The translations under genes were made by a program, and so were the position numbers. Below the pieces are notes generated by a model. The model saw only the letters and a program-made list of their open reading frames with translations, ran no database searches and was not told the origin of the DNA. From IMG/VR virus record IMGVR_UViG_3300028454_001166, positions 34,758-98,757 of that record: a DNA stretch of 64,000 bases; one strand, 5' to 3'. Positions 1,729 through 62,376 of the stretch are shown piece by piece (position 1 is the first letter of the stretch; each line of letters starts with the position of its first letter). This DNA is from a virus. Its lineage: Duplodnaviria > Caudoviricetes.

Positions 1729-1930
1729 TTTCATTTCTGGGGAAGCGTATGTTGAAGACTGTCCTACGGCCATTAAGATTTCCGTTGATTCCGAGGGCGG
1801 CATTCGCGCGGACCCGCTTCCCGAAGGGTACGATTGGTGTAAAAAACATCTTCGGTATGCGATTGGGGTTCTCCGACAAGCGCGTAAAATGGAGGATCCT
1901 CCTACCGAACGAACGATAATGTGGTATTGA
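1694..1930 (+). CDS. Small protein, candidate immunity to the portal toxin tip
   Basis: 78 aa (MVKVKNITKT...), overlaps the portal 3' end, followed directly by a terminator. Confidence 0.55.
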   Translation: MVKVKNITKTPDFISGEAYVEDCPTAIKISVDSEGGIRADPLPEGYDWCKKHLRYAIGVLRQARKMEDPPTERTIMWY

Positions 1931-1949
1931 TATAGCAGATCTGACAATG

Positions 1950-1977
1950 AAAAAAGGACGGGGGCCCGTCCTTTTTT
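1950..1977 (+). terminator. Intrinsic terminator
   Basis: AAAAAAGGACGG-GGGC-CCGTCC-TTTTTT. Confidence 0.8.
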
Positions 1978-1996
1978 CATGCCTTCGGAGGACATT

Positions 1997-2584
1997 GTGG
2001 GAAAAGTCGATGAATATATAAAGCGGAGGAGAATCCGGCTTCTTTCCCGGAACGGAGAAACACCTTCATTCTCAGATCGAGTAACGGCTTTCAAGGCCCG
2101 TCGCGCAGCTCGGCTCGACGTACGGAATAAAGAACTTGAAATGCTGAAAAATGGGTTGACTTTCTCCAAATATAATGGTAACATTGCAATGGATGAATTC
2201 GTGGAAGGCGACCATCCACGGGATGAGAACGGGCAATTCGCTAAAGCGAATAGCTCCGAGGCTTCAAGCGAGTCGGGAGCTGAAACGGTAAAACCGCAAC
2301 CCACGACCCCATCTGCAAAAGAGATCCGGTCCCGTTTGATCGGGCAAAAAACGCAGGACGGGCAAACGGTAAAGTCGGTGAGCGACCACGCAGTACAAAG
2401 GGTTCAGGAACGGAAGATCGGTTTTGATACAATCGAGAATTTGTTCCAATCCGGTAACGTTCGGCCCGGACACACACCGAACACGATTTGCTATGAAACC
2501 GATAAGCACAGAGTTGTTTTCGACAAAAACAACGGCAAAATAGTAACCGTGATGCACCGGGGCAATAGAGGAGGCAAGAAATAA
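1997..2584 (+). CDS. Putative head-cargo effector with two Arg-rich leaders, HPRD motif and C-terminal DUF4258/BECR-like RNase domain
   Basis: GTG start after GGAGG; YIKRRRIRLLSR and FKARRAARLDVR; GNIAMDEFVEGDHPRDENGQF; tip SDHAVQRVQERKI...VVFDKNNGKIVTV. Confidence 0.6.
   Translation: MGKVDEYIKRRRIRLLSRNGETPSFSDRVTAFKARRAARLDVRNKELEMLKNGLTFSKYNGNIAMDEFVEGDHPRDENGQFAKANSSEASSESGAETVKPQPTTPSAKEIRSRLIGQKTQDGQTVKSVSDHAVQRVQERKIGFDTIENLFQSGNVRPGHTPNTICYETDKHRVVFDKNNGKIVTVMHRGNRGGKK
2156..2184 (+). promoter_or_regulatory. SigmaA-type promoter embedded in effector CDS
   Basis: TTGACT (2156-2161), N17 ending TGG, TAACAT (2179-2184); a TATAAT also lies at 2171-2176. Confidence 0.65.
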
Positions 2585-2844
2585 TGGACACGAAGGGCTT
2601 TCTTGATCTGCTGAATCAAGAACAAAATGATTTCATCCTCGATGAGTTTTCCATGACGCAGGATCAGCTCCTCGGCCTTTCCGATGAAGGCCTCGACGAG
2701 CTCTACGAAGAGCTGGCAGACATTGAGGTTGAGGAGACGATGAAAGCCGAAGAAACGGGCGCAGCTCTTTCGGACAGAGGCCGGATTGCTTCTGAGATCG
2801 TCACTGTTTGGGGCAACGCCTACGCCGAGATAGACGAGGAGTGA
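2584..2844 (+). CDS. Small acidic protein, candidate immunity to the upstream RNase-like tip
   Basis: 86 aa, very acidic, TAATG overlap with the upstream gene, terminator follows. Confidence 0.6.
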   Translation: MDTKGFLDLLNQEQNDFILDEFSMTQDQLLGLSDEGLDELYEELADIEVEETMKAEETGAALSDRGRIASEIVTVWGNAYAEIDEE

Positions 2845-2864
2845 ACCCGAAAACAAAATACCTG

Positions 2865-2888
2865 AAGGACGGATCCCCGTCCTTTTTT
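2865..2888 (+). terminator. Intrinsic terminator, near copy of 1950-1977
   Basis: AAGGACGG-ATCC-CCGTCCTT-TTTT. Confidence 0.8.
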
Positions 2889-2938
2889 CGTGCCCATGTT
2901 TGAGAGCCGCGTAGGGGCTTATATGGAGGCGTTTTAAC

Positions 2939-3895
2939 GTGAACGAAAAGATACCCGCCCAACTGAAAAACGCGACTGACAAAGCCCCCACGAAGGTCAG
3001 AAGCCGCGTCCGGGCAAAAGGGACGCTCCTGTACCCGGATTCATCCGAACGGGAGTACGCTTCGCTGGCTTTGAAGCACGCCCGGATGTACGGCGACCTG
3101 TTAAAAGAATACCTGCCGGAGATCGAAACGATTCTCCGTGAAACCGCGAGGACGGATTCCAAGGATTACCACGATGATGCGAAAATCCTTGATTTCTCCG
3201 AGCGGTTTTCTCGTACCATCCGGAAGATGGAAAAAGAGCTGGCCGAAAAGCTGGACGATTTCGACACGGAGTACTTCATCAAGAAGGTGGCGAAACGGGC
3301 AAACGGGAGCAACACCCGCCAGTGGTTGCAGCTGATAAAGAAAACCTACGGGATCGATCTTGACGGTCACTACTACAACAAAGGAACGTGGGCGGATATG
3401 ATCGACAGATGGGCCGCGGAAAACGTCGGCTATGTGAAGTCAATTCCGCAGGATTCTCTGGCTACACTTCGCCAGATCGTCCAGAACGGGTACTACGACG
3501 GCTGGGGGGTCATTAAGACCCGGAACGAGATCATGAAGGCTTTCGGGGTTTCCAAGAAAAAAGCAAAGATGCTGGCCGCGGATCAAATGGGTTCCTTGTG
3601 TGCGCAAATAACCCGGAAGAAGCAAACGGACGCCGGGTGCAAACGGTATCGATGGAAAGCCCGAAACGACAACCGTGTTCGGGATGCGCACAGGCAGTAC
3701 AACGGGAAAATCTTCTCATGGGACAACCCGCCGCCCGCGTGGTACATGACCAAGACGAAGGGGAAGGTCTTCACCGGGAGGCATTGTCATCCCGGCGAGG
3801 ATTACTGTTGCCGGTGCATAGCGATACCGATCTTCGATTCGGACACGCTTCAACTGCCCGTGAAGAGCGGATACGAGGAGACCGGACAAACGTGA
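2939..3895 (+). CDS. Minor head morphogenesis protein (MuF / SPP1 gp7 family), no toxin extension
   Basis: YRWKARNDNRVRDAH...GKIFSWDNPP...HPGEDYCCRCIAIP is the Phage_Mu_F signature. Confidence 0.9.
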   Translation: MNEKIPAQLKNATDKAPTKVRSRVRAKGTLLYPDSSEREYASLALKHARMYGDLLKEYLPEIETILRETARTDSKDYHDDAKILDFSERFSRTIRKMEKELAEKLDDFDTEYFIKKVAKRANGSNTRQWLQLIKKTYGIDLDGHYYNKGTWADMIDRWAAENVGYVKSIPQDSLATLRQIVQNGYYDGWGVIKTRNEIMKAFGVSKKKAKMLAADQMGSLCAQITRKKQTDAGCKRYRWKARNDNRVRDAHRQYNGKIFSWDNPPPAWYMTKTKGKVFTGRHCHPGEDYCCRCIAIPIFDSDTLQLPVKSGYEETGQT

Positions 3896-3912
3896 GGAAG
3901 GGAGCAATTGGA

Positions 3913-4758
3913 ATGAATAAAGTACGCGCTTTCCAAGGGCGTCGATATAAGCGGCTCCTCGCAAGGATGGATGCCAACACTGACAAAGGAAAATGGATCA
4001 CAACCGAAAACAATCACAAAGTCCATCTGAACGAGAACGGACAACCAGATATGGGCAACCCTCACGTGATCGCTGCGATGGGTGGTAGCGAGTCCTCAGT
4101 ACAGGTAAGTGATCTCAGTAAGCGGGTTGAGGGACTTAAGAAGATGAAAAAGACCGAACGGCAACAGGAGCTTGCGAGTATTCTCGGTGATATGCCGGTG
4201 GGTTCTCAGATTACAGTTAAGAACCCGGGGCTTCCTGATCAAGTCATAACGAAAAAGGACGCGGAAACCTTCGAGCTTAAGACCACGATGTTTGGTGCAC
4301 CATCCGTTCACGATTCTTCACTCTTCGCATTGTCTCACGGTTTGTCTAATGATAAGAGCAATGCGTATTCGTTCGAAGGCTCCGGCACAATGCAATCTCA
4401 GGCGAAGGCGGAAAGTGGCGTTAATCCCAACGCTAAAACCCCCTCCAATGTATCATCTTCAAGTTCAAGTGGGGGTGGGTCTACAGTGCCCCCCGATGCA
4501 GATGCTCTTGCTAAGACAAAGGCTCAAAAAGCCGCTGAAAAAGCTAAGACTGCGGCCATGCTCAAAAAAGCACAAGCCGCGGTAGCTAAAAAAGAAAAGA
4601 TCTCACAGATTGATAAGGAAATCGAGCAGCTGGAACACGAGATGTATAAGGCCCAGCATTACGGGAATACCGAGATCGGGGATTGGGATCTGTCCCACGA
4701 ACTTGAAATGAAAATCCATAATCTTGAGGAGCAGAAAAAGAAGCTCACAGGGAAGTAA
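3913..4758 (+). CDS. Putative head-cargo protein (leader family), unknown C-terminus
   Basis: ATG 3913 after GGAG; FQGRRYKRLLARMD...GKWITTENNHKVHLNENGQPDMGNPHVI is paralogous to the N-termini at 4781 and 9646. Confidence 0.7.
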   Translation: MNKVRAFQGRRYKRLLARMDANTDKGKWITTENNHKVHLNENGQPDMGNPHVIAAMGGSESSVQVSDLSKRVEGLKKMKKTERQQELASILGDMPVGSQITVKNPGLPDQVITKKDAETFELKTTMFGAPSVHDSSLFALSHGLSNDKSNAYSFEGSGTMQSQAKAESGVNPNAKTPSNVSSSSSSGGGSTVPPDADALAKTKAQKAAEKAKTAAMLKKAQAAVAKKEKISQIDKEIEQLEHEMYKAQHYGNTEIGDWDLSHELEMKIHNLEEQKKKLTGK

Positions 4759-4780
4759 AAGTTAAAGCGAGGCATTTTTG

Positions 4781-7700
4781 ATGAATAAAACGGATGCGTA
4801 CCGTAACCGCCGGTATAAGCGGCTTCTCGCAAGAATGGATGAAGTGGATGGCCATTTCGACGACGAGGGGCATTGGGTCACAACCCACGAAACGAAACGG
4901 CACATACACATAAACGAGAACGGGGTTCCTGATAAGGGCAACCCCTATATTATTGCCAAGATGACCGGGACGAAACCGAAACTCAGCGGCGAATACCGGA
5001 AAAAATCGCTGCAGGAGAGTTTCGGTAAAGGGAATACCGGTAAGGCAGTGCATTCGTTGAAGAGCCTTCCCGAAGGATCGACGATCAAGATGGCAAACGG
5101 AACGGAGTACACAAAGACCGGAAGCGGCTTTGTCAGTTCCAAGAGTAAAACGGGTGGTAAACAGACCCCGCAAGCTCTGGCGAAAATCCTTGATGGTCAT
5201 ACGAAGGCCGGTAAGAACTTCGAGGTCAATCCTTCCGACATTGGCGGGGCTGTCGAAGCGGGGAAAAACACGGGAGCCCCGAAGCCCGGACAGGGTGCTG
5301 AGTCCGAGGCTCCGAGTGCTTCTACGTCAGAATCGGTGCCGGAAACCGCATCAGCATCGTCCCCGGAGATCGATGCGCTTAACACGGTAATCGATCAATG
5401 GGGCGCGGGCAATCAGGTCCCCGCAGTAACCACATTGCAAGCTCTCACGGGTTTAGAAGACGGGACGAAAATCTTAGTTGACGGGTTTACCTTTGAAAAG
5501 CAGTCTGAAATCAGCGCGCTTGGGGCAGGGAAGGTCACTTCCTTTAAGAACACGGACACGGGCGAGGTCTTTAGTAAGGGTACGTTTAAGGCAATCCTGA
5601 AAAGCTATGCAGAGGAAGGTCAGCACGATATAGAGGTGCAAGCGCCCGGTCAATCGACGCCCGCCTCGGCTGAGGCCGCACCTGCTCCGGATGAGGTGGC
5701 CCCGGTTGAAACGGCTTCGACTTCTCCTGAAGTAACCAAATTCAACGACATTCTTTCAGGGTGGGCTGGCCACTACAGCGATGGGACACTTACAGAGGAC
5801 GATATTGCCGCCGCAAATGCTTTGAAGGATGGCACGATTATCTCCGTTAACGGAAAAGATACCTACAAAAAGGTTACCGAACACTCCATGTACGGCGACT
5901 ATCCGTGGTTTGAAAACTTAGAAACCGGGAAATGGTCGAATGTACCCGCGCTGAAAAAAATCGTGGGCGGGGATGACGTACAGGCTGTACAGGTGAAAGA
6001 TCCCGCAAATGATACAACAGTTTCTGCGCCAGCTTCTGAACAAGAGCCTACGCCGACGTCGAGTGCCGAGCCTTCTGCCGAGCAACCGAGTTCTTCTTCC
6101 GGTGGTAAGACGATGAAGGACCTGACAGAGTCCTTGAAAAAGTATCCCCCGACCATGGAGGGGGCGAATAAGTTCTGGAATGAAGTCAATAGCACCTTCG
6201 ATAACGCCCCTGACGGAACTGAGATAACCTTTCCTGATGAAGACGATGGAAAATGGATCAAGGAAACCCACGGGAGCCTGACGCAATGGGTAAACCTCGC
6301 TTCCGGCGATACGATGGATAACAGTGAGATGTCGGCGGCTTTCTTGGATTCCGACTTTGGCAAGGATCTCGATAACATTTCTGCCGGAATAACCTATAAA
6401 GAACCTACCGGCGCGGGGACGCCGGGTTCAAGCTCGAGCGGTTCAAGTGGTTTAGCCTCGCAGGATTATTCGGGCCAAAAAGAAGCCCTTAGCGATCTGA
6501 TCAAAAACGTGCCCGATGCGAGCATTGCCGCCTATGAAACGGTGTTGGATGAATTCCCAGAGGGCACCATCATCAAGGTTGGCGGAAAAACGTATGAAAA
6601 AATTCCGTCCGGGGATTGGGGTGATCCAGATACAGGGTTGCCGCTTGGCGAGTCTTGGGATGTGGGCTACGAGCTGAAGCACTATAACCCTCAACACACC
6701 TTAGACATTTCGATACCCGGAGAAAACACCGCCGCGTCTTCCACCGGCAATGCGAATACACCTACTACGAGTTCTGACCCGGCGCAGTATTCGGCGTCTC
6801 TTTCAGGGGTAAAAAGCGCTGTAGATAAACTGAAACAAGGGAAATTCGTCCATCCGGCAGAGTTCAAAAAGGCGTGTAAGTCAATGAAAGACGGCGATGG
6901 AATCGTCACGAACGGAAAAACCTATATCAAGGGTACAGATTCGTCCGGAAATCCGGTGTTCCACCCTTCTGATTCCCCACAGCACACTTACAGTTCTACC
7001 GGCATGGTGGACATCATGGCATACCAGATCGGTTTGCAAAAAGCCGGTCTCTCAAACGGGGTTTCGTTCAAATCCGGATCGGATCAATCCAGCTCAGGAA
7101 GTACAGCCGGTGCTTCACCCAGCACGGCAGCTCCCACGGCAACACCGAGCGTGGCCGCAAAAGACACGCAGAAATCAATCAAAAATGCTAAGACCAAAGC
7201 CGCCGTCGCTTCGGCTCTGGACGCGCTTCCCGTGGGAACGAAGATCCACATGAAGAACCAAGGGGAAACCGTGTTCACAAAAACGGAGCACGGTTTCTCA
7301 AAAGAGTCTAAGTTCTGGGGCGGGACCATTCACACCCTTACCGATGACGTGGTGAAATATGTTCACGGGAAGAATAAATACGCCGCGCCCTTTGCTATCG
7401 AAGATACTTCTGGCGGAACAACCGATTTCTCGGACGGTTCAAGCTATAAAGCCCCGGCGCATTCGTCTACCGCGTCTTTGCAAAGCCAGTCTTCCTCCTC
7501 CGCCTCGTCCGCTTCATCTTCCGCATCAAGCCCGAAACCGAGTGCTTGGAACGGGCTAAAAGCAAAAGTCCAACATGCCGCCGAAGCGTTCACCCAAGCC
7601 CGGAAGAACGCGGCCCATTGGGATAAAGGGGGCGGAATGGCAACCGATAAACTGCTGAGACCGGTTACAGGAGCAGTATGGAAAAAACTAACTGAGGGGC

Positions 7701-8266
7701 AGAAGAAGAGTCTGGTTGCCTATACCGGGAGCGCTTATGCGAGCATAAATGACGCATTGAGAAACGGAACCGGTAAACGAGCTGCAGACATAAACAACAT
7801 GACAACGGCTATCGATCAGTGCGAAGCGCCCACCGATATATGGCTTCAGAGAGGATGTTCGACATACGCATTGAGTAAGCTGTTCAACACCGATACGATG
7901 ACCCTTGAAAAAGCGCGTTCAAAAGGATCCCAAGCTATTCTTGACCTTTTGTCCACCTCGGCAAACTACGGTCAGGATAAGGGTTTCATGTCATGCGGGT
8001 CTTCGAAAGGGAAGGGCTTTTCCTCTAACGATGTGATTTTGAACGTGTACTGTCCGAAAGGCACGAAGATGATGTATGCGGAACCGTTCTCCCACTATGG
8101 CGCGACAAGTGCCGGAGCTACGTGGAACGGCTCGTCTGGTACAACTCATGTTTCAGGCGAACACGAAACAATCCTGCAAAGGGGGACAATGCTCCGTCCC
8201 ACAAAGGTCACGGTGTCTAACGGTAAGATATACGTGGATGTAGACGTAATCGGTCAAAACTACTAA
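4781..8266 (+). CDS. Large putative head-cargo protein with internal repeats and C-terminal VIP2/Alt-like ADP-ribosyltransferase
   Basis: Leader YRNRRYKRLLARMD; C-terminal YTGSAYASINDALR, WLQRG, GFMSCG and EHETILQRG give the R-S-ExE ART motifs. Confidence 0.8.
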   Translation: MNKTDAYRNRRYKRLLARMDEVDGHFDDEGHWVTTHETKRHIHINENGVPDKGNPYIIAKMTGTKPKLSGEYRKKSLQESFGKGNTGKAVHSLKSLPEGSTIKMANGTEYTKTGSGFVSSKSKTGGKQTPQALAKILDGHTKAGKNFEVNPSDIGGAVEAGKNTGAPKPGQGAESEAPSASTSESVPETASASSPEIDALNTVIDQWGAGNQVPAVTTLQALTGLEDGTKILVDGFTFEKQSEISALGAGKVTSFKNTDTGEVFSKGTFKAILKSYAEEGQHDIEVQAPGQSTPASAEAAPAPDEVAPVETASTSPEVTKFNDILSGWAGHYSDGTLTEDDIAAANALKDGTIISVNGKDTYKKVTEHSMYGDYPWFENLETGKWSNVPALKKIVGGDDVQAVQVKDPANDTTVSAPASEQEPTPTSSAEPSAEQPSSSSGGKTMKDLTESLKKYPPTMEGANKFWNEVNSTFDNAPDGTEITFPDEDDGKWIKETHGSLTQWVNLASGDTMDNSEMSAAFLDSDFGKDLDNISAGITYKEPTGAGTPGSSSSGSSGLASQDYSGQKEALSDLIKNVPDASIAAYETVLDEFPEGTIIKVGGKTYEKIPSGDWGDPDTGLPLGESWDVGYELKHYNPQHTLDISIPGENTAASSTGNANTPTTSSDPAQYSASLSGVKSAVDKLKQGKFVHPAEFKKACKSMKDGDGIVTNGKTYIKGTDSSGNPVFHPSDSPQHTYSSTGMVDIMAYQIGLQKAGLSNGVSFKSGSDQSSSGSTAGASPSTAAPTATPSVAAKDTQKSIKNAKTKAAVASALDALPVGTKIHMKNQGETVFTKTEHGFSKESKFWGGTIHTLTDDVVKYVHGKNKYAAPFAIEDTSGGTTDFSDGSSYKAPAHSSTASLQSQSSSSASSASSSASSPKPSAWNGLKAKVQHAAEAFTQARKNAAHWDKGGGMATDKLLRPVTGAVWKKLTEGQKKSLVAYTGSAYASINDALRNGTGKRAADINNMTTAIDQCEAPTDIWLQRGCSTYALSKLFNTDTMTLEKARSKGSQAILDLLSTSANYGQDKGFMSCGSSKGKGFSSNDVILNVYCPKGTKMMYAEPFSHYGATSAGATWNGSSGTTHVSGEHETILQRGTMLRPTKVTVSNGKIYVDVDVIGQNY

Positions 8267-8293
8267 CCTCGAAATTAAACCGGTTATTACTGC

Positions 8294-8322
8294 TTGACTT
8301 TTTTCATGCTTTATGGTAATAT
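8294..8322 (+). promoter_or_regulatory. SigmaA-type promoter for the 8354/8654 gene pair
   Basis: TTGACT-N14-TGG-TAATAT, intergenic. Confidence 0.75.
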
Positions 8323-8353
8323 GGGTTTACCTAATATGAGGGGGTAACATTTC

Positions 8354-8608
8354 ATGGCGAAAGAAGGAAAGATGAAGCCTCGTGATTGGGATGAGGGATT
8401 CGGTGATAACGCTGAACACGGCGCGGAAGAAACGCCTTGCACCGATTGCGTTTTTCGTCGAATTGTCACAAGCGCAGATGGTAGGGTGATAGATACCGGA
8501 AAAGGATCTACCTGCAAGGCCTATCCCGAGCTCAAACCGCTCGAGGTGATGATGTATGGGGCCGAGTGCCCGAAATATCAGAAGGATAAACACGAAAAGA
8601 ACCTCTGA
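8354..8608 (+). CDS. Small Cys-rich protein, candidate ART partner/immunity
   Basis: 84 aa; PCTDC...CKAYP...ECPKY; lies between the ART and the ADP-ribosylglycohydrolase. Confidence 0.55.
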   Translation: MAKEGKMKPRDWDEGFGDNAEHGAEETPCTDCVFRRIVTSADGRVIDTGKGSTCKAYPELKPLEVMMYGAECPKYQKDKHEKNL

Positions 8609-32255: not shown

Positions 32256-35200
32256 ATGTACTTCAAAAAGCTGAAAATCAACGGTATTGAGTATGAAATG
32301 GAAACCCATATTGTCGGAGAGGAGGATCCCACCTCCGAGACCGAAGGCAATCTGGGCCAGTTCTATTACAACTCGAATACCGGCATCTTCTGGAAGTGTA
32401 CCTATTCCGAGGATGGCGTGTACTCTTGGGAAGAGTTCAGCACGACCGCCTTTGATGAAGTCACGATGGATGAAGAAACCCGGCTTCTCCATTTCCTGAA
32501 AAATGGGGAAGATGTAGTCGATCCTGTGTACATCGCGGGAGGCGGCGGAGGCAGCGGAGGCGGCAGCGGCAACAATGCCGTCCTCACCGTTACAAACATG
32601 ACCGGATGGCTGGCGCATACGATCAGCACCGGCGCGGACTGCTATCTGTCTATCGACTGGTCTTCCCTCGAAAATGAGATGGAGACCGGCGCGGGCATCC
32701 TGACGATCCGCGTGAACAACGTGGTGAAGCGGACGCTGGACATTTCTCAGGGGACCGTCCGGATCAACCTCAAGGATATTCTTGCGACCGGATCCAACAA
32801 GGTCAAGCTGACCGTAACCGACGTGTACGAGAACACGAAGTCGATCACCTTCACAATCAAGTCCGTCGATCTGCGGCTGGCAAGCTCGTTCTCCACGGTT
32901 TCCGAATTCACCGAGGGCGAGGCTGTCGTATTCACCTACACGCCCTACGGCTCCGTTTCCAAGACCACGCATTTCGAGGTGGACGGAGCGGATGCCGGGA
33001 CGCAGGTTGTGACGGCCTCCGGCAGACAGCAGAGCTACACCCTCCCGGCCATGGCCCACGGCGCGCACAGCCTGAAAGTCTGGTTCACGGCTGAGATCGA
33101 CGGGGAGGAAGTGTCCTCGAACGTCTTATGGTTTGACATGATCGTGGTCGGGGATTCGACCGCGCCGATCATTTCGACCTCGTTCCGCACCTCCGAAGCC
33201 GTGCAGTACGAAACCCTGTACATCAAATACCGCGTCTACACCCCGAACAGTCTGACGTCCGTTGTCAGCCTGTATTCCGGGAACACGAAGATCACCGATC
33301 TGACCGTGGACCGGACGGAACAGACATGGACCTATCGCTGCGACGGATACGGGGAGCTGAATCTTTCGATCCGGAGCGGAACCGCCGTCGTGAATTTCGT
33401 GATCGACGTGGAGCAGTCCGACATTGACACGGAGCCGGAGGCCGACTCCCTCGCCCTGCATCTTTCGAGCTACGGGCGATCCAACAACGAGGAGCATCCG
33501 GAGGTCTGGAAGGACGAAGAGCACAACATTTCCTGCCAGCTCACGGGATTCAGCTACGTTGCAAACGGATGGGTCGCGGACAAGGACGGCAACACCGTCC
33601 TTCGCGTCTCCGGAAACGCCCGCGTGACGATCCCGTACAAGCCCTTCGAGAGAGATTTCCGCACCACGGGCAAGACGCTTGAGTTTGAGTTTGCGACGCG
33701 GGATGTGCTGGACTACGACGCGGTGCTGGTTTCCTGCATGAACGGAAACCGCGGATTCGAACTCACGTCCCAGCGGGCAACGCTGAAATCCGAACGGTCG
33801 GAGATTTCCACGCAGTACAAGGAAGACGAGCACGTCCGGATTTCCTTTGTGGCGGAGAAGAGAACCGAAAGCCGCCTGATCTACGTTTACATCAACGGCA
33901 TCATGTCCGGCGTGGTGGAGTATCCGGAAGACGACGACTTCTCCCAGCAGTCTCCGGTGAACATCACCATCGGCGCGAACACCTGCACGACCGATCTATA
34001 CAACATCCGGGTCTACGACAACAACCTGACCCGGTTCCAGATCGTGAGCAACTGGATCGCCGACACGCAGAACATCACGGAAATGCTGGCCCGGTACGAG
34101 CACAACAACGTGTACGACGAATACGGGAATGTCGTCATTTCCAAGCTGCCGAAGGATCTGCCGTACATGATCATCGAGGCGGAGGAACTTCCGCAGTACA
34201 AGGGCGACAAGAAGACGGTTTCCGTGGAGTACACCGACCCCGTAACCCCCGGCAGGAGCTTCACGGCGACCGGATGTCAGGCAAACGTACAGGGGACGTC
34301 CTCCGCGCCATACGCCCGGAAGAACTACGATATGCAGTTCAAGGCGGGATTCGTTCTCGCGGACAAGTCCTCGGCGGAAAACTACGAGCTGGCCCCCGGA
34401 ATCATCCCCTTCAACCGTTTCGTTCTGAAAGCGGATGTGGCGTCCTCGGAATCCGCAAACAACGTGGAGCTGGTGAAGCTGTTCTGCGAGGCCGATCCCT
34501 ACAAACGCCCCGAAGAACTGTCGAATGCTAAGGTCAGAAAGGGTATCTACGGCTTCCCGATTGTGCTGTTCTGGCGCAATCCTGCGGACGGTTCGGAACA
34601 GTTCATGGGGAAGTACAACTTCAACCTGCCCAAACGTGCTCCCGGCCCCTACGGGTACAGCGGAGACATGGAGTCTTGGGAGTTCCAGAACAACACCTCC
34701 AACCTCATGCTTTTCCTGAGCGACTATTTCTCCGAGGCACCTCAGGCTGATCCCTCCACCGGAGAGGTCAAGGCCGCATGGCGATATGATTACGAAGCGC
34801 GTTTTCCCTCCGACGAATGGGTGGACTACTCCAAACTTCAGGAGTTCCAATCCTTTGTCTTCTCGACCTACCGGGCCGGGGCGACGGGGAATGATCTGGA
34901 AACGCCCGTGACCTATCAGGAGACCCATACCGTCTATGATGAGGTGGTGGATCCGGAAACCGGAGCTGTGGACTATGTGGAGCGGCTTGTGACGGAGGAT
35001 GTGACCTACACCAAGGATACGGCGGAATACCGTCTATCCCGCTTCCATCATGAGTTCGGTAAATATGCGGAGGTGGATTCGTTCCTCTTCTACTACATCT
35101 TTACCGAATTGTTCCTGATGGTGGACTCCCGTGCGAAGAACCTGTTCATCGGCTTCTCGGGCGGGCCGACGTCCGGCCTGACCCACCTCGACCGCAAGGC

Positions 35201-38200
35201 CGTTGCAGAGCCTTACGACATGGACACGGCGATAGGTACGAACAACGAGGGCTCGCTGGTTTTTGACTACGGTCTCGAAGACACCGACCACCTCGCGGGC
35301 GGCGCGGATGTATTCAACGGCCAGAATTCTGTCCTCTGGTGCAACCTGAGAGACGCTTTCTCCCGCGAGATCGCGCAGATGTATCAGTCCCTCCGCTCGG
35401 CGGGCGTTCTGTCCTACGCGACAGTTTCTGCACGGTTTACCGATCACCAAGCCAAATGGCCGGAGGCGATCTTCAACGACGATGCGCAGTTCAAATACCT
35501 CGACCCGCTGGTGAATCCCGATCCCGGCAAGGAGCCTACGGCCGTCTACCTGCCCATGCTTCAGGGATCCAAGGCGGAGCAGCGGAAATGGTGGCTCTAC
35601 AACCGGTTCCGCTACATGGATTCCAAGTGGAACGCCGGGGACGCGCTGACGGACGTGATCCAGCTCAGAGGCTACGCCAAGGCGGATATCACGGTCACGC
35701 CCTACGCGGATATTTACCCGACCATCAAATACGGTTCCGTTCCTGTTCAGGCGAGAGGAAAGCATGGCGTTCCCCAGACGCTGGCCTGTCCCCTCGATAA
35801 CGTGAACGACACCGAAATCTATATCTACTCCGCCTCCCAGCTTGCCTCAGTTGGAGATTTGTCCGGGTTGAAGGTCGGTTTCGCTGACTTCTCCAAAGCG
35901 ACGAAGCTCCAGTCCATCAAGGTTGGCTCGGACGAGGCGGGATACACAAACCAGAACCTTACGGGCCTGAGTGTGGGTACGAACCCGCTTCTCGGATCCG
36001 TGGATGCCCGGAACTGCACAGCCCTTGTCGGTACGGTGGATCTGTCGGGTGCGGCGAACGTCGAAACCGTTCTTCTGGAAGGAACTGCCGTTACCGGTGT
36101 TGCCCTTCCGAACGGCGGCATTCTGAAAACGCTCCACCTGCCCGGTACGGTGACGAACCTGACCGTGCGGAACCAGCCGGGGATCACGAGCTTCGTCATG
36201 CCGGACTACGAGAATATCACGACCCTCCGCGTGGAGAACAGCCCCGGAATCCCGGTGGAAGACATTCTCGCCGAGATCCCGGAAAACAGCCGCGTCCGCA
36301 TTCTCGGTTTTGTCTCCGAAATGACGACGGTCGAAGAGGTGGATGCGTTCTACGCGCGCCTCGACACCATGCGCGGCCTCGACGAATCGGGCGGAAACGT
36401 GGACACCGCGGTTGTGGCAGGGAAGATCACGGGGCTCGACACGATCACGGGCGCATGGCTCGCAGACAAGCTCTCGAAATACCCGAACATCGAGATCGAA
36501 TACCAGCACATCACCAGCAGTCTGCGGTACTACAACTACGACGGTTCGACGCTGATCACCACCGAGACCATCACGGACGGCGGCGACGGAACATACTCCG
36601 GCACTCCGTCCAGAAGCTCGACGGCACAATACAGCTACACCTTCGTCGGCTGGAACCGGAACAAGAACGCGACCGCGAAGGACAGCAGCGCGACCAAGGC
36701 CGTGACCGCCGACCGGGACGTTTACGCGGCCTATACGGCCACGGTGCGGACGTACACGATCACATGGAAGAACAGCAACGGAACCGTTCTCGAGACGGAC
36801 AACAACGTGCCTTACGGATCCACGCCGAGATACAACGGATCGACGCCGCAGAATCCCGACAGCTCGGGCGGCGCGTTCCGCGGATGGACACCCACGGTCA
36901 CGACCGTCACCGGGAACACGACGTACACGGCTTCCTATGTGCCGAAGTATGACGTGAAGTTCTACAACGGTTCGACCCTGCTCCAGACGGTTTCCGTTTT
37001 GGAAGGAGGAACGGCGGTATATACCGGAGAGACTCCGGTTGACGCGGGCGGAGCCGAGTTCCTTGGATGGGCGGCTTCGGCCGGTCAGCACTCCGCGGAC
37101 GCCAATATTCTGAAGAATATCACGGCGAACAAGAGCGTCTATGCGGCGTTCAAGTCTCCGATTGAGGTTCCCACGGCGACGACTGCGGAGGGGGCTTACG
37201 GTGTGGAATGGAACTACGGGGCGACGGCAACCACCCTGACAAGAAAGGGGCTGGCAGCTTCGTTCGGCAATCCCGTTCCGGCCGATTCCCTCACCGGTTC
37301 CGGATCCTCTCCGTTCGATACGGTTGCGCCGTGGAAGGACATGAAGCGGTACAACGTAATCGACGGGGCGGTCTCGTATTCGCAGGACGACGCCGGATAC
37401 TCCGAAACGGACTACGATACCGTGGTCTACATCCCGGAGTTTTATTACACGGCCTACAAAGACACCGCCGATTCCAAGTGGCTGTGGGCGATCTCTCCGA
37501 CGCCGCTTGAGGGTTTTGTGAAGCACCCCGGTTCCGGTCGGTACATCGGGCGGTTCCACACCTCCGGAAGCTCGTCCGGTGTATTCTCGAAATCGGGCGC
37601 TGCTCCGCTGGCGAACACCACCCGTGCGAACTTCCGGATGTACTCCCACAACAAAGGCGAAAAGTGGCGTCAGCTCGACCTCGCGGCGTGGTCTGCGCTT
37701 CAGATGCTCTACCTTGTGGAATTTGCGAACTTCTATTCGCAGAGCACACTCGGGACGGGCTATGATACCGGATCGGTCGGCACGATGGGCGAGACCGGCG
37801 AGGCGGCTTACCATACGCTGAAACGCTCGAAGGCGCACAATATGTACCGCTGGATCGAAGATCCGTTCTCGAATGTTCTGGACTGGTGCGACGGCTTTGT
37901 CGCTTCATCCAGAGCTGCCTACACCAGCATCGACTACGGGAGCTACAAGGATACAACCACGGGCATGGATAAAACCGGCATCACGCTCCCGAGTTCGAAC
38001 TATATTTCGGGATTCGGATACAGCGCGGAAGCGCCTTATGCGTTCATCCCTGATAAAGCGTCAGGAGCAGAAACAACCTACGTTACAGACCGCGTCTACT
38101 CGAACACCGGGACTTGCGTCCTGTACGTCGGCGGTAGCTGCAACGCGAACGCGGACTATGGGTTCTTCTGCTTCGGCGCCTACCTCTCGGCTTCGAACAC

Positions 38201-38240
38201 CTACGCCAGCTTCGGCTCCCGCCTCCTTTATATCCCTTAA
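32256..38240 (+). CDS. Large tail/receptor-binding protein, DGR target (LamG-like, LRR-like and Listeria-Bacteroides-like repeats, C-terminal CLec-like variable domain)
   Basis: 1994 aa; YTFVGW..TA..DVYA.Y repeats; C-terminus LYVGGS...FGSRL contains the VR. Confidence 0.85.
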   Translation: MYFKKLKINGIEYEMETHIVGEEDPTSETEGNLGQFYYNSNTGIFWKCTYSEDGVYSWEEFSTTAFDEVTMDEETRLLHFLKNGEDVVDPVYIAGGGGGSGGGSGNNAVLTVTNMTGWLAHTISTGADCYLSIDWSSLENEMETGAGILTIRVNNVVKRTLDISQGTVRINLKDILATGSNKVKLTVTDVYENTKSITFTIKSVDLRLASSFSTVSEFTEGEAVVFTYTPYGSVSKTTHFEVDGADAGTQVVTASGRQQSYTLPAMAHGAHSLKVWFTAEIDGEEVSSNVLWFDMIVVGDSTAPIISTSFRTSEAVQYETLYIKYRVYTPNSLTSVVSLYSGNTKITDLTVDRTEQTWTYRCDGYGELNLSIRSGTAVVNFVIDVEQSDIDTEPEADSLALHLSSYGRSNNEEHPEVWKDEEHNISCQLTGFSYVANGWVADKDGNTVLRVSGNARVTIPYKPFERDFRTTGKTLEFEFATRDVLDYDAVLVSCMNGNRGFELTSQRATLKSERSEISTQYKEDEHVRISFVAEKRTESRLIYVYINGIMSGVVEYPEDDDFSQQSPVNITIGANTCTTDLYNIRVYDNNLTRFQIVSNWIADTQNITEMLARYEHNNVYDEYGNVVISKLPKDLPYMIIEAEELPQYKGDKKTVSVEYTDPVTPGRSFTATGCQANVQGTSSAPYARKNYDMQFKAGFVLADKSSAENYELAPGIIPFNRFVLKADVASSESANNVELVKLFCEADPYKRPEELSNAKVRKGIYGFPIVLFWRNPADGSEQFMGKYNFNLPKRAPGPYGYSGDMESWEFQNNTSNLMLFLSDYFSEAPQADPSTGEVKAAWRYDYEARFPSDEWVDYSKLQEFQSFVFSTYRAGATGNDLETPVTYQETHTVYDEVVDPETGAVDYVERLVTEDVTYTKDTAEYRLSRFHHEFGKYAEVDSFLFYYIFTELFLMVDSRAKNLFIGFSGGPTSGLTHLDRKAVAEPYDMDTAIGTNNEGSLVFDYGLEDTDHLAGGADVFNGQNSVLWCNLRDAFSREIAQMYQSLRSAGVLSYATVSARFTDHQAKWPEAIFNDDAQFKYLDPLVNPDPGKEPTAVYLPMLQGSKAEQRKWWLYNRFRYMDSKWNAGDALTDVIQLRGYAKADITVTPYADIYPTIKYGSVPVQARGKHGVPQTLACPLDNVNDTEIYIYSASQLASVGDLSGLKVGFADFSKATKLQSIKVGSDEAGYTNQNLTGLSVGTNPLLGSVDARNCTALVGTVDLSGAANVETVLLEGTAVTGVALPNGGILKTLHLPGTVTNLTVRNQPGITSFVMPDYENITTLRVENSPGIPVEDILAEIPENSRVRILGFVSEMTTVEEVDAFYARLDTMRGLDESGGNVDTAVVAGKITGLDTITGAWLADKLSKYPNIEIEYQHITSSLRYYNYDGSTLITTETITDGGDGTYSGTPSRSSTAQYSYTFVGWNRNKNATAKDSSATKAVTADRDVYAAYTATVRTYTITWKNSNGTVLETDNNVPYGSTPRYNGSTPQNPDSSGGAFRGWTPTVTTVTGNTTYTASYVPKYDVKFYNGSTLLQTVSVLEGGTAVYTGETPVDAGGAEFLGWAASAGQHSADANILKNITANKSVYAAFKSPIEVPTATTAEGAYGVEWNYGATATTLTRKGLAASFGNPVPADSLTGSGSSPFDTVAPWKDMKRYNVIDGAVSYSQDDAGYSETDYDTVVYIPEFYYTAYKDTADSKWLWAISPTPLEGFVKHPGSGRYIGRFHTSGSSSGVFSKSGAAPLANTTRANFRMYSHNKGEKWRQLDLAAWSALQMLYLVEFANFYSQSTLGTGYDTGSVGTMGETGEAAYHTLKRSKAHNMYRWIEDPFSNVLDWCDGFVASSRAAYTSIDYGSYKDTTTGMDKTGITLPSSNYISGFGYSAEAPYAFIPDKASGAETTYVTDRVYSNTGTCVLYVGGSCNANADYGFFCFGAYLSASNTYASFGSRLLYIP
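38091..38228 (+). repeat. DGR variable repeat (VR)
   Basis: 138-bp ungapped match to 38403-38540 with 15 mismatches, 14 of them opposite TR adenines. Confidence 0.95.
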
Positions 38241-38247
38241 GGGGGAC

Positions 38248-38265
38248 CGGGGGTCGCAACCCCCG
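38248..38265 (+). other. DGR target-recognition hairpin downstream of VR
   Basis: CGGGGGT-CGCA-ACCCCCG, just after the target gene stop. Confidence 0.8.
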
Positions 38266-38402
38266 AGAGCTTAAAGCTCAGGCAAAACAAACAGCAAAGC
38301 AAACACAACAAACGCAACGGAAGTCCATATCCGTCCGCGCACAGCGGTCGGATATGGGATTTCCCGGGATTCCCTGCGCAGTGGAGCGGTGCTTGTATCC
38401 TT

Positions 38403-38540
38403 CGCGTCAACTCGAACACCGGGACCTGCGTCCTGTACGTCGGCGGTAACTACAACGCGAACGCGAACTATGGGTTCTTCTACTTCAACGCCAACAACTC
38501 GGCTTCGAACACCAACGCCAACATCGGCTCCCGCCACCTT
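38403..38540 (+). ncRNA. DGR template repeat (TR)
   Basis: AAC-rich copy of VR, upstream of the RT gene. Confidence 0.95.
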
Positions 38541-38659
38541 GTTCATACGGTTTGTGATATGCGCGCAGGGCTTTCCGTACCACTTGGTAAAAATATCGCC
38601 GCAAGGAGAGTGTTTAGTAGGACTATCTCGAAAAACGCTCAGGCGAACAAGGAGAAAAG

Positions 38660-39739
38660 ATGCCAAAAAGAATTGGATTTCTCTACGACAAAATGTGCGA
38701 CAAGGTTTTCATCCGAACCGCCATCCTCGAAGGCGCGGTCGGAAAACACAAGCGGGCCGACGTGAAAGCGGTTCTCGAAGATCTTGACGGCTATGTGAAC
38801 AAGACATACGAAATGCTGGTGAACCGCGCTTATGTTCCGACGCCGCCGAGATCGAAGCGGATCTACGACAAGACCTGTCAGAAAGAGCGGACGATCCAGA
38901 TTGTCCCGTACTTCCCGGACGGAATCATGCACTGGCTCTGCGTCAAGGCGATGCGGGGCGTTCTGATGCGCGGGATGTACCGCTGGAGCTGCGCGTCCAT
39001 ACCGGGCCGCGGGAACAAATGCGCATGGAGCTATGTCAAGCGCGCTTTGAAGAAGGATCCGAAGGGGACGAAATACTGTCTGAAGATGGACATCAAGAGC
39101 TACTATCCATCGATCAGGCCGAAGCGTCTGATCTGGGCCCTGGCCCGCAAGATCAAGGACAAGCTGTTTCTGAAAACCGTTTACAGCATAGTGGCTTCGA
39201 ATCCGGATCCCGGAATCGCGGTCGGTTTTTACATCAACCAATGGCTCGCAAACTATTTTCTCGAACCGCTCGACCGGCTGATCTGCTCCCTTCCCGGTGT
39301 CAAACACTACGTGCGGAACATGGACGACATGGTAGTATTCGGGTCGAGCAAACGGGATCTGCACCGGGCGCGGGCGAAAATCTCCGAGTTCCTTTTGGAT
39401 CGTCTTTCTCTGGTGCTGAAAGGGAACTGGCAGGTATTTCCCGTGGACGGGCGCGGCGTGGACTTCATCGGCTATCGGTTCTTCCACTCGCACACCGCTT
39501 TGAGGCGGAGGAATTTCCTGCGCTTCATCCGGCAGTGCCGCAGGGTGGCCGGGATGGCCGCGGACGGGATCGCCATTCCATTTCACGAGGCGTCAGGTCT
39601 TCTCTCCCGGGCCGGTTCGCTGAAACACTGCGACTGCGCGGGCGCCAAGCGGCGGTATCTGGACGAGGGAGTCAGCGTCGGGCGGCTGAAACGGGTCGTG
39701 AGAGAACATGATCTGCACCTCCGCCTGACGACCGCATAG
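38660..39739 (+). CDS. DGR reverse transcriptase
   Basis: KERTI, ASIPGRG, LKMDIKSYYPSI, GIAVGFYINQWLAN, YVRNMDDM, VDFIGY; adjacent to TR/VR. Confidence 0.93.
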   Translation: MPKRIGFLYDKMCDKVFIRTAILEGAVGKHKRADVKAVLEDLDGYVNKTYEMLVNRAYVPTPPRSKRIYDKTCQKERTIQIVPYFPDGIMHWLCVKAMRGVLMRGMYRWSCASIPGRGNKCAWSYVKRALKKDPKGTKYCLKMDIKSYYPSIRPKRLIWALARKIKDKLFLKTVYSIVASNPDPGIAVGFYINQWLANYFLEPLDRLICSLPGVKHYVRNMDDMVVFGSSKRDLHRARAKISEFLLDRLSLVLKGNWQVFPVDGRGVDFIGYRFFHSHTALRRRNFLRFIRQCRRVAGMAADGIAIPFHEASGLLSRAGSLKHCDCAGAKRRYLDEGVSVGRLKRVVREHDLHLRLTTA

Positions 39740-58889: not shown

Positions 58890-59111
58890 TTACAGTTCGG
58901 ATGAATCCAAAGCATCCGGGCGGTATTCATCCGCCGCGATTCTGGCCCGGACCGCTTGCGCTACCAGATCCGTGATGGATCGGTATTTTTCCGGGTACTT
59001 GGCGACGTGATCGGCCATCTCAGCCTTTAGTCCTTTGGGTAAGGCGAGGCTCATTCTATCATAATGATCGTTGATGAAGGCGTTTGCCTTCCGGGAGGCT
59101 TCTCCTGCCAT
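58890..59111 (-). CDS. Ribbon-helix-helix (Arc/MetJ-like) regulator
   Basis: KAN.F...HYDRMSLALPKGLK...SITDLVAQAV; AAGGAG SD; minus-strand TTGTAA-N17-TACACT at 59173-59145. Confidence 0.7.
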   Translation of the reverse strand: MAGEASRKANAFINDHYDRMSLALPKGLKAEMADHVAKYPEKYRSITDLVAQAVRARIAADEYRPDALDSSEL

Positions 59112-59231
59112 GTTCGGCTCCTTTTTACACAAAAGTTTACTTATAGTGTAACACATTCCGGCTGTTCTTACAAGAGGCAACTTGCACAATTTCTACCTGT
59201 ACGTTTGTGTAGTATATGTTCCGAAAAAGGC

Positions 59232-59260
59232 TTGATATTCTGCAAGAGTAGAGGTAGTAT
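59232..59260 (+). promoter_or_regulatory. Repeated promoter, copy 1
   Basis: TTGATA-TTCTGCAAGAGTAGAGG-TAGTAT. Confidence 0.8.
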
Positions 59261-59315
59261 GTAGGCACAACCGAAGAACGAAACCTAATAGAGCACAATG
59301 CTAAAGGAGGCAAAC

Positions 59316-59594
59316 ATGAGCACGAACGAGCTGATTGCGAAGATCGAGGAGTTGCGGGGCCTTGAGGAACTGGTTAAGGAGGCCGAGCAGGAGATCGAAG
59401 GGATCAAGGATTCCATCAAGCAGCAGATGAACGACGCGCAGATCGAGGAGCTTGAGGCCGGGACGCACATCATTCGGTACACCACGGTGATCAGCGACCG
59501 CTTCGACAGCACCCGGTTCAAGAAGGAGCACGGGGACATGTACCGGGAATACAGCCGGAAGTCCACCAGCAGACGGTTCACGATCAGCGACTGA
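59316..59594 (+). CDS. Hypothetical protein
   Basis: AAGGAGG SD; RFDSTRFKKEH..Y..Y....SRRFTI. Confidence 0.7.
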   Translation: MSTNELIAKIEELRGLEELVKEAEQEIEGIKDSIKQQMNDAQIEELEAGTHIIRYTTVISDRFDSTRFKKEHGDMYREYSRKSTSRRFTISD

Positions 59595-59682: not shown

Positions 59683-59970
59683 ATGAAGTACAGCGTTAAG
59701 TTCAGTTGCGGCCATACTGAGACCAAGGAACTGTTCGGAAAGGTTTCCGAACGGGAACGCAGGATTGCTTGGTGGGAGCAGAACGGGATTTGCACCAACT
59801 GCTATCTGGATCAGAAAGCCATCGAGAATGCCATCGGCCACCACGAGGTTGAGATGTTCTACGGCGACTACAAGCGCGACTACGCCAAGTGCAAGACGAA
59901 GCCGGGAAGTTACAACGGCGACACAAAAACGATCATCGTTTTCGTGCCGGATGAAGCGCCCGTCTGCTAA
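59683..59970 (+). CDS. Hypothetical protein
   Basis: FSCGH...LFGK..ER...C.NC. Confidence 0.65.
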   Translation: MKYSVKFSCGHTETKELFGKVSERERRIAWWEQNGICTNCYLDQKAIENAIGHHEVEMFYGDYKRDYAKCKTKPGSYNGDTKTIIVFVPDEAPVC

Positions 59971-60001: not shown

Positions 60002-60463
60002 ATGGAGAAAATAGCGAGTTTCAAAATCAACCACGACATGCTGACACGAGGGTTGTACATCTCCCGCGTTGACGGAGATGTCATTACCTACGACCTCCGG
60101 ATGAAACTGCCCAACGGTGAAGACTACCTCGCTCCCGCTGTGGCACACACCCTTGAACACCTTCTTGCCACCTACCTGCGGAACTCGGAGATTGGAAACG
60201 AGGTGGTGTACGTCGGTCCGATGGGGTGCAGGACCGGGTTTTACATATTGTTACGGGACACCGTAAGCCCTGAAGCAGCTATCGTGGAAATCTACACGGC
60301 CCTGTGCGTCGCCGCGAATTACATGGGCGACATCCCCGGAGCGACGAGAGCCGAGTGCGGGAACTACAGGGATCACGACCTCGTGGGGGCGAGAATAGAG
60401 GCCCGTAAGATGCTCCCCATTCTGCGTATGTGGACAAAGGGTCAACTAAAGTACCCCGAATAA
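60002..60463 (+). CDS. luxS: S-ribosylhomocysteine lyase (AI-2 synthase)
   Basis: SFKINH, YDLRM..PN, HTLEH, GPMGCRTGFY, CGNY..HDL; metal ligands and catalytic Cys present. Confidence 0.93.
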   Translation: MEKIASFKINHDMLTRGLYISRVDGDVITYDLRMKLPNGEDYLAPAVAHTLEHLLATYLRNSEIGNEVVYVGPMGCRTGFYILLRDTVSPEAAIVEIYTALCVAANYMGDIPGATRAECGNYRDHDLVGARIEARKMLPILRMWTKGQLKYPE

Positions 60464-60481
60464 AACACACAAGTACGCCGC

Positions 60482-60544
60482 TCTAAGTTTGTGTAGTTTA
60501 TTTTCAGGTATGGGGTTGATATTCTGCAAGAGTAGAGGTAATAT
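60482..60544 (+). promoter_or_regulatory. Repeated promoter, copy 2
   Basis: 59 bp (60482-60540) identical to 62257-62315; TTGATA-N17-TAATAT. Confidence 0.85.
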
Positions 60545-60609
60545 GTGCATGTAAATAAACACCGCCTACGCGCGGGCAAGCCTGACAGGGCAGAAAGAGG
60601 AACCCCACA

Positions 60610-61212
60610 ATGAAGATGGTCGAAATCAAACTTAGAAGCACTACCGCGGAACTTGAAAAGCTCGAAGCACGGGAGGCCAAGGCCGAGGAACGGCTCCAGA
60701 AAGCGATTCACAAGGCTCAGAAGCTGAACGCGGATTTCCCCACGGTCGAGGCTTACAGGGCTTGGATGGACACCGTTGAGACCGACGAGATAGGCTTCAT
60801 AGTAAACAAGGCCGACATTGACCGCAACGGCGCATACCGGGCCATGGGGATGGCACAGGACGATCTGGACGACATAAGAGACCGGATCGCAAAAGCCGAG
60901 GCCCGGGTTGAGAAGGCGCAGGTCGAGGTTGACGCTTACCACACGGAGATGCAGAAGCAGCTCGACCACGAGGCCTTCGAACGGCTGATGGAAGCCGAGT
61001 TCGAGAAGGAACAAAAAGAGTGGGCGAAGGACGGCGTCAAGCTCGAGGGGCGGTACTACGGAGAAACCCCGAAGGGCGAACGCTTCTGGATCGAGGGCAA
61101 CAACGGGTTCACCGAACGGAGCCGCCACTGCTTCACCCTGACGGTTGGAGGCCGGACGATTTTCACGAGCGGCGAATTCTGGAGATGCTACGCCACGATC
61201 AAGAACGCCTGA
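60610..61212 (+). CDS. Hypothetical coiled-coil protein
   Basis: First gene after promoter copy 2. Confidence 0.7.
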   Translation: MKMVEIKLRSTTAELEKLEAREAKAEERLQKAIHKAQKLNADFPTVEAYRAWMDTVETDEIGFIVNKADIDRNGAYRAMGMAQDDLDDIRDRIAKAEARVEKAQVEVDAYHTEMQKQLDHEAFERLMEAEFEKEQKEWAKDGVKLEGRYYGETPKGERFWIEGNNGFTERSRHCFTLTVGGRTIFTSGEFWRCYATIKNA

Positions 61213-62233: not shown

Positions 62234-62319
62234 AATAAACTACACAAGCGTGGGGTTCTAAGTTTGTGTAGTTTATTTTCAGGTATGGGGTTGATATTCT
62301 GCAAGAGTAGAGGTAGTAT
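62234..62319 (+). promoter_or_regulatory. Repeated promoter, copy 3, with upstream 14-bp inverted repeat
   Basis: AATAAACTACACAA-N16-TTGTGTAGTTTATT, then TTGATA-N17-TAGTAT. Confidence 0.85.
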
Positions 62320-62376
62320 GTTGCTACCGAAAGGGAAAAACCACGAGGCCGGACACCCCGGCAGAAGGAGAACAAC

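Follow-up and report, generated by a model that had tools for sequence, protein, structure and literature searches.

A LuxS gene carried by an integrated Brigit-like phage and its possible role in the methyl cycle

LuxS (S-ribosylhomocysteine lyase, EC 4.4.1.21) makes DPD, the precursor of AI-2, and recycles homocysteine in the methyl cycle. Methyl-group metabolism is thereby linked to AI-2, which is the most widespread of the bacterial signals. A LuxS gene in a phage genome raises the question of why a virus should carry it, given that infection or lysogeny could then change both methyl metabolism and AI-2 in a gut community. We address this question for a stretch of viral DNA of 64,000 nucleotides (hereafter, the window), in which a LuxS gene occupies positions 60002-60463 of the plus strand, and for which an earlier note had proposed that the phage alters either interspecies signalling or SAM/SAH flux. 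The locus is a well-defined test object, namely, an integrated phage with known ends, a promoter and a donor clade, in a host whose own LuxS can be distinguished from that of the phage.

The LuxS gene, its product and its transcription unit

The open reading frame is uninterrupted over its 153 codons, and a GGAGGA ribosome-binding site is located 8 nt 5' of the ATG. The 153-aa product matches the Pfam LuxS family (PF02664) over model positions 1-145 of 154 with 150.7 bits (cut-off 27; E 3.5e-44). Its score against the NCBIfam equivalog NF002604 is 155.6 bits, 2.4 short of the threshold of 158, with the full length aligned; no part is missing, and the shortfall is due to divergence of the phage protein from the seed set of the model. 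The top sequence match in the PDB is LuxS of D. radiodurans (E 6e-23), and the best 16 PDB matches listed by Foldseek for the AlphaFold2 model of the phage protein (pLDDT 93.2) are all LuxS (TM 0.73-0.82). The fold, metal ligands and catalytic residues are common to the phage protein and the solved LuxS enzymes (1J6V, 1VGX, 1J98), at a sequence identity of 27-38%. The motifs HTLEH, GCRTG and CGNY are found at residues 49-53, 75-79 and 119-122, respectively. H49, E52, H53, C76 and C119 align with H54, E57, H58, C84 and C126 of the B. subtilis enzyme, and include all metal ligands (H49, H53, C119) and the catalytic residues E52 and C76. Closer to the N terminus, S6, H11 and R33 align with S6, H11 and R39 of B. 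subtilis, positions which we take to complete the active site of the partner subunit, as in the solved LuxS homodimers. All these residues are invariant in an alignment with about 25-26 relatives. We see no sign of an inactive enzyme in the sequence, and the phage LuxS is probably active.

LuxS is encoded by the third gene of a unit (unit 1) that starts from the first of three plus-strand repeats, each consisting of an inverted pair of half-sites upstream of the -35 element of a predicted sigma-70-like promoter (TTGATA, 17 nt, TA[GA]TAT). Repeat copy 1 (59175-59262) contains its promoter, with TAGTAT as the second element, at 59232-59260; copy 2 (60459-60546) contains a promoter at 60516-60544 that starts unit 2; and copy 3 (62234-62321) contains one at 62291-62319. 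The same 25-nt promoter core recurs without a mismatch at 59232, 60516 and 62291 and is absent elsewhere in the window, with 0 matches expected by chance. The first gene of unit 1 (59298-59594, plus strand) encodes a 98-aa protein that matches phrog_434 (RecE-like C-terminal part; E 1e-16), phrog_6244 (E 3e-16) and, weakly, the Pfam family Sipho_Gp157, and the second (59683-59970, plus strand) encodes a Cys-rich protein of 95 aa (phrog_16123, E 1.3e-11). Repeat copy 2, which begins at 60459, covers the LuxS stop codon (60461-60463). Unit 2, on the same strand, opens with a gene for a 200-aa protein (60610-61212) which has no Pfam or PHROG match but is 44-49% identical to homologues in three LuxS-less viral contigs.

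The half-sites of the repeats are possibly an operator rather than a terminator, given that the upstream region of copy 1 folds no better than shuffled sequences (z +0.4) and that the hairpin of copy 2, directly 3' of the LuxS stop codon, is weak (-9 kcal/mol, z -0.95). A terminator after LuxS is accordingly unsupported, the copy 2 hairpin being no better than shuffles, and the sole strong hairpin of the three is that of copy 3 (-22.7 kcal/mol, z -6.1). Adjoining copy 1 on the minus strand is a small divergent gene (58890-59189), a candidate for a regulator, with an open reading frame of 99 aa and a probable start at an internal Met that would yield 73 aa. A ribbon-helix-helix identity was considered for its product and was not confirmed, with no match in Pfam and a weak one to phrog_13890 (E 2e-4).

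The genes on both sides of LuxS match phage families (phrog_1735, phrog_2018, phrog_434/6244, phrog_16123 and phrog_38037), and homologues of the flanking genes are present in other viral contigs without LuxS, suggesting that the accessory arm is mosaic and that LuxS is cargo specific to this lineage. The earlier note had described a full-length LuxS with the three motifs, flanked by phage-type genes, downstream of promoter copy 1 and ending at the next repeat; each element of this description is borne out by the open reading frame and Pfam match, the PHROG matches upstream and downstream, the threefold promoter core and the overlap of the stop codon with copy 2.

The phage and its boundaries

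The window corresponds to positions 273,642-337,641 of C45, a 543.5-kb contig of a gut-type Clostridia genome (4.3-Mb assembly, 59.6% GC). On this contig, a low-GC island (50-55% GC) of ~100 kb extends from about 238,888 to 339,109, bordered by an S41-peptidase-like host gene on the left and a host gene for a HATPase_c_2 protein on the right. The tetranucleotide correlation between the island and the host is r 0.82, compared to 0.99 between host contigs. The left end of the island encodes, on the minus strand, an 856-aa large serine recombinase (integrase) and a CI-type repressor, which are followed by a DUF2800 nuclease, a family-A DNA polymerase (PolA) and, to the right of the latter, a fusion of ParB_N with an N6/N4 DNA methyltransferase (C45:264,730-265,992). 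Structural genes in the window encode a portal fused to NUDIX, head protease, major capsid protein, tail sheath, tape measure and baseplate J. From 3' of the endolysin gene (window 40436), an arm of 24 kb, in which most genes are small and on the plus strand, leads to the right end of the phage at about window 65,468. The LuxS gene is located ~5 kb inside that end and the integrase gene ~95 kb to its left. The island is the integrated genome of a temperate phage that carries genes for a contractile tail.

Several other features of the element were recorded. The portal-NUDIX fusion, of which the window holds the C-terminal part of the portal, spans window 67-1728, and a 1162-aa head-module protein (window 4778-8266) carries a C-terminal ADP-ribosyltransferase domain (PF03496). 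A diversity-generating retroelement (DGR, window 32256-39739) consists of a gene for a 1994-aa tail-associated protein followed by a reverse transcriptase gene (phrog_1423, 311 bits). Five tRNA genes (Thr, Ser, Asn and two Met) in the early region of the prophage (L004:14822-16126; C45 about 246.8-248.1 kb) adjoin a stretch of very low GC content (35-45%). At the right junction, ARAGORN predicts a minus-strand tRNA-Gln (L003:5212-5284; C45 about 339,211-339,283) that overlaps the host HATPase_c_2 gene at its annotated start and is possibly a remnant of the junction or a false call. Contig C45 also contains a second low-GC island of ~85 kb (about 110,000-195,000; 49-55% GC), with a tetranucleotide correlation of r 0.76 with the host and r 0.87 with the phage island, which is possibly another mobile element.

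The closest cultured relative is the Faecalibacterium phage FP_Brigit (NC_047909, Brigitvirus), which has the same layout, from integrase/repressor through replication, a ParB-domain gene, packaging, contractile tail, DGR and lysis to a long arm of small genes. The major capsid proteins of the two phages are 59.5% identical, and 23 structural genes are syntenic, with 26-60% protein identity. By contrast, the two phages show no homology in the early module or the right arm, and the genome of FP_Brigit is smaller (61.7 kb compared to ~100 kb) and lacks LuxS. As a megablast search with 24 kb against phage records yielded no match and FP_Brigit shares the structural module only, the present phage falls outside the genus Brigitvirus, as a relative above the genus level. 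FP_Brigit is annotated with a MetK (methionine adenosyltransferase, gp17; NC_047909.1 11148-12326) in its early module, and with the ParB-domain gene before the terminase.

It could be argued that LuxS is not borne by the phage, being either host DNA beside the prophage or part of a chimeric contig, all the more so because a search for attachment sites revealed no direct repeat of more than 12 bp shared by the island ends; one 12-mer is present near both ends and may be there by chance. Serine integrases, however, need only very short core sites, which accounts for the missing repeat. Furthermore, phage-type genes and the third promoter copy continue for ~5 kb past LuxS before the GC content returns to the host level, and the gene is foreign to the host lineage, as shown by the comparisons below. 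An independent metagenome contig of 1,856 bp (L117) carries the 95-aa gene, LuxS, the repeat and the 200-aa gene in the same order at ~95% identity and then diverges, which argues against a chimeric artefact and largely answers the possibility, considered in the earlier note, of an assembly that joined phage and host DNA. Hence, we give this explanation almost no credence.

Donor lineage and maintenance of the gene

The host encodes an intact LuxS of its own on contig C105 (G000:C105:79723-80142; L001:1408-1929, minus strand), the composition of which is that of the host. This protein of 174 aa is only 44% identical to the phage LuxS, and same-genus copies are 46-48% identical to that of the phage. 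In a phylogenetic tree of 187 LuxS sequences, the host protein is found on a separate long branch. The phage protein, together with its cluster of sequences at least 90% identical to it and two metagenome proteins, forms a group (support 96) that is sister to another group of 153-aa proteins (support 96), deep inside a cellular clade of the Oscillospirales type. The nearest proteins are P0002 (78% identity) and P0003 (71%), and a large set of 153-aa LuxS from Ruminococcaceae, Acutalibacteraceae, Oscillospiraceae and Faecalibacterium-type genomes is 57-66% identical to that of the phage. The loci of these named relatives have nothing except LuxS in common with the island. Their LuxS neighbourhoods recur, with genes for a pseudouridine synthase, an M23 peptidase, MetN, a Cys/Met PLP enzyme and pyruvate kinase, and such housekeeping surroundings indicate that these copies are chromosomal. 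Thus, the phage LuxS has the length of the chromosomal Oscillospirales-type proteins, whereas its gene, instead of having housekeeping neighbours, belongs to the accessory arm of a phage and is under one of the repeated promoters found there. Taken together, these comparisons point to capture from a lineage other than that of the host, apparently not a recent event. An origin from host DNA, which the earlier note proposed to check by phylogeny, does not agree with the low identity to the host copy and its distant branch.

In the host's family, LuxS was found in 64 of the 151 genomes sampled, with two copies in only 2. The only other genome with two copies (G020) encodes them at C127:58079-58531 (57% identical to the phage LuxS) and C76:85788-86207 (50%). 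Many proteins with the labels Lachnospiraceae, Eubacterium or Clostridia share 80-87% identity with the host LuxS, and the 153-aa form takes the place of the 174-aa form in several genera of the host's family; the host gene may itself have been acquired horizontally.

The phage gene is intact and located inside the prophage, resembles phage DNA in base composition and evolves under purifying selection. Its GC content (55%) and GC3 (70%) are like those of the neighbouring phage genes. Comparison with the L117 copy revealed 14 synonymous and 3 non-synonymous differences, corresponding to a dN/dS of 0.06 for this one sequence pair, from which purifying selection would follow; for the neighbouring genes, the values are 0.10 (95-aa gene) and 0.09. 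The cluster at 90% identity or more comprises 12 protein variants from several assemblies. These observations bear on the possibility that LuxS is a passenger, gained by illegitimate recombination and persisting with no benefit to the phage. Such a history would fit the occurrence of the flanking genes without LuxS in other viral contigs, the absence of the gene from FP_Brigit and its redundancy given the host copy. Nevertheless, the low dN/dS, a composition matching that of the phage and the 12 distinct variants all speak against it, as do the at least five independent entries of LuxS into phages, which argue for a recurrent benefit, and we regard a passenger gene as quite improbable. With viral genes on both sides, a cellular origin and maintenance by selection (as seen in one pair), the gene has the attributes of an auxiliary metabolic gene (AMG). 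The account that we prefer, and hold to be somewhat more probable than its negation, is that a functional LuxS was captured by a temperate Brigit-like phage from a chromosome of Oscillospirales-type Clostridia, outside the lineage of the host, and was kept as an AMG.

Neighbourhoods and roles of viral LuxS

The genes that accompany LuxS in other viruses offer a concrete hypothesis for why phages carry it. We compared 28 LuxS-bearing viral loci, which form 15 clusters of nucleotide similarity, with 91 cellular loci of similar length, counting as partners MetK, Pfs, a MetE-like gene and a DNA methyltransferase. At least one partner adjoins LuxS in 12 of the 15 viral clusters compared to 13 of the 91 cellular loci (Fisher p 7e-7), with the provisos, applicable to all the neighbourhood statistics, that the contigs were retrieved by motif, that related loci were treated as independent, which overstates their independence, and that some IMG/VR contigs may include host flanks. 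MetK adjoins LuxS in 7/15 viral clusters and 1/91 cellular loci (Fisher p 2e-6), a DNA methyltransferase in 5-6/15 and 0/91 (p 3e-5, counted as 5/15), and Pfs in 6/15 and 12/91 (p 0.02).

In one set of contigs (L016-L023), genes for MetK, an N6/N4 methyltransferase, a MetE-like synthase and LuxS are followed by those for the small and large terminase subunits, portal and protease. For instance, L018 (IMG/VR 3300031857_017577) carries at positions 61-5851 a compact cassette of MetK, N6/N4 methyltransferase, MetE-like protein (PF01717) and LuxS directly upstream of TerS and TerL; this type of cassette, found also in L016, L017 and L019-L023, represents a complete activated methyl cycle except for Pfs. 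MetK, Pfs and LuxS occur together in L131-L137 and L014, a second group of large viral contigs unrelated to that of L018. In six of these (L131-L133 and L135-L137; IMG/VR 3300045988, 46-86 kb), the genes for MetK, a Pfs-family protein and LuxS are located side by side at about 6041-8462. Pfs adjoins LuxS in L009, L104, L118 and L119, and MetK is encoded near LuxS in L010, L011 and L013. Of the latter, L010 and L013 also carry a ParB-methyltransferase, that of L010 being 68% identical to the one in the present phage. Viral LuxS genes branch at five or more separate points of the 187-sequence tree, so the association with methyl-cycle genes arose repeatedly. Overall, the viral neighbourhoods favour a methyl-cycle role for phage LuxS, with the AI-2 precursor as a by-product, and suggest that the enzyme feeds viral DNA methylation. 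The SAM/SAH flux invoked in the earlier note is thus favoured by what is found in other LuxS-bearing viral contigs.

For the present phage, the methyl-cycle reading would hold by analogy. Like the IMG/VR cassettes, it combines LuxS and an N6/N4 DNA methyltransferase on the same genome, but its LuxS has no methyl-cycle partner in its unit, is 31-46% identical to the cassette LuxS proteins and represents a separate capture event. No methyl-cycle partner is encoded within a few kb of LuxS, so the gene is not part of a cassette, and no matches to the MetK, Pfs or MetE families were found anywhere in the island. The sole methyltransferase found there, the ParB-N6/N4 fusion, is encoded in a different module, 68 kb from LuxS on the prophage map and ~30 kb on the circular map. 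Searches of the island for other SAM-using enzymes (C5 methylase, D12 methylase, N6_Mtase and radical SAM) yielded none, and the MT-A70 search gave no match, with its control likewise matching nowhere. The host supplies Pfs-family genes, MetK, homocysteine methyltransferases and its own LuxS, and the benefit of a second copy is therefore not obvious.

Under our preferred account, methylation of phage DNA, here by the ParB-N6/N4 methyltransferase, would convert SAM to SAH, which host Pfs would turn into S-ribosylhomocysteine. The extra LuxS of the phage would convert the latter to homocysteine and DPD, and host methionine synthase and MetK would regenerate SAM from homocysteine, so that the methyl cycle would be kept running and product inhibition prevented. 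The phage copy would also free the phage from dependence on a host LuxS, a gene that fewer than half of the sampled genomes of the family possess. DPD would be an unavoidable by-product, and infected or lysogenic cells would emit more AI-2.

The main rival to a methyl-cycle role is signalling or lysogenic conversion, in which AI-2 itself is the selected product: the prophage would raise the AI-2 output of lysogens or infected cells, altering community behaviour or feeding an AI-2-dependent decision between lysis and lysogeny. An accessory arm next to the attachment end is the usual place for conversion genes, and the position of LuxS near that end, in a separately promoted unit and outside the replication and methylation modules, suits such a role equally well. 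Each LuxS turnover, moreover, yields DPD. In phage T1, the switch between lysis and lysogeny is reportedly influenced by AI-2 (PMC6737242). On the other hand, searches of Pfam and PHROGs revealed neither a receptor for AI-2 nor a regulator responsive to it in the vicinity of LuxS, the companions of the gene in other phages are MetK, Pfs, MetE-like and methyltransferase genes and not regulators, and the host, with a LuxS of its own, produces AI-2 anyway. Selection for signalling is therefore, in our estimate, unlikely, albeit the alternative to be taken most seriously. A wider scenario, which we consider speculative and rather less likely still, is that phages of gut Clostridia run a methyl cycle of their own, assembled piecemeal from MetK, Pfs, LuxS, MetE-like and methyltransferase genes, for sustained genome methylation, with a burst of AI-2 from infected or lysogenic cells as its direct result; in the present phage, LuxS would have moved under an autonomous, operator-controlled promoter, and the prophage could set the AI-2 output of its host independently of replication.

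The earlier note regarded LuxS as unusual for a phage and called for a survey of viral databases. Such genes are indeed infrequent: PHROGs contain no LuxS family and BFVD no LuxS fold, and tblastn detected LuxS in 12 of 50,697 phage records, which are unannotated faecal metagenome scaffolds, short fragments and one bacterial contig. Two motif-based scans of the 2.9 million IMG/VR contigs identified at least 25 with LuxS, a lower bound; a single-protein scan had returned no close relative there, and alignments had to be used instead. The kind is known, however, as luxS has already been listed among the main organosulfur AMGs of human-associated viromes, where it evolves under purifying selection and sometimes occurs with mtnN (Kieft et al., 2021, bioRxiv 10.1101/2021.01.05.425418). 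In addition, one phage LuxS was reported from anaerobic digesters in a 2026 study (PMC13644194). The literature searched contained no experimentally characterised phage LuxS. The luxS AMGs that Kieft et al. described from human-gut viromes resemble the present gene in being phage-encoded, host-derived, under purifying selection and associated with Clostridiales-type hosts, and were interpreted as part of methionine/SAM metabolism; unlike those found with mtnN, the gene studied here has no MetK or Pfs partner. Whereas the previous cases, including that from digesters, are survey-level listings, the present one is set in an integrated phage of ~100 kb with known ends, a promoter, operon partners and a donor clade.
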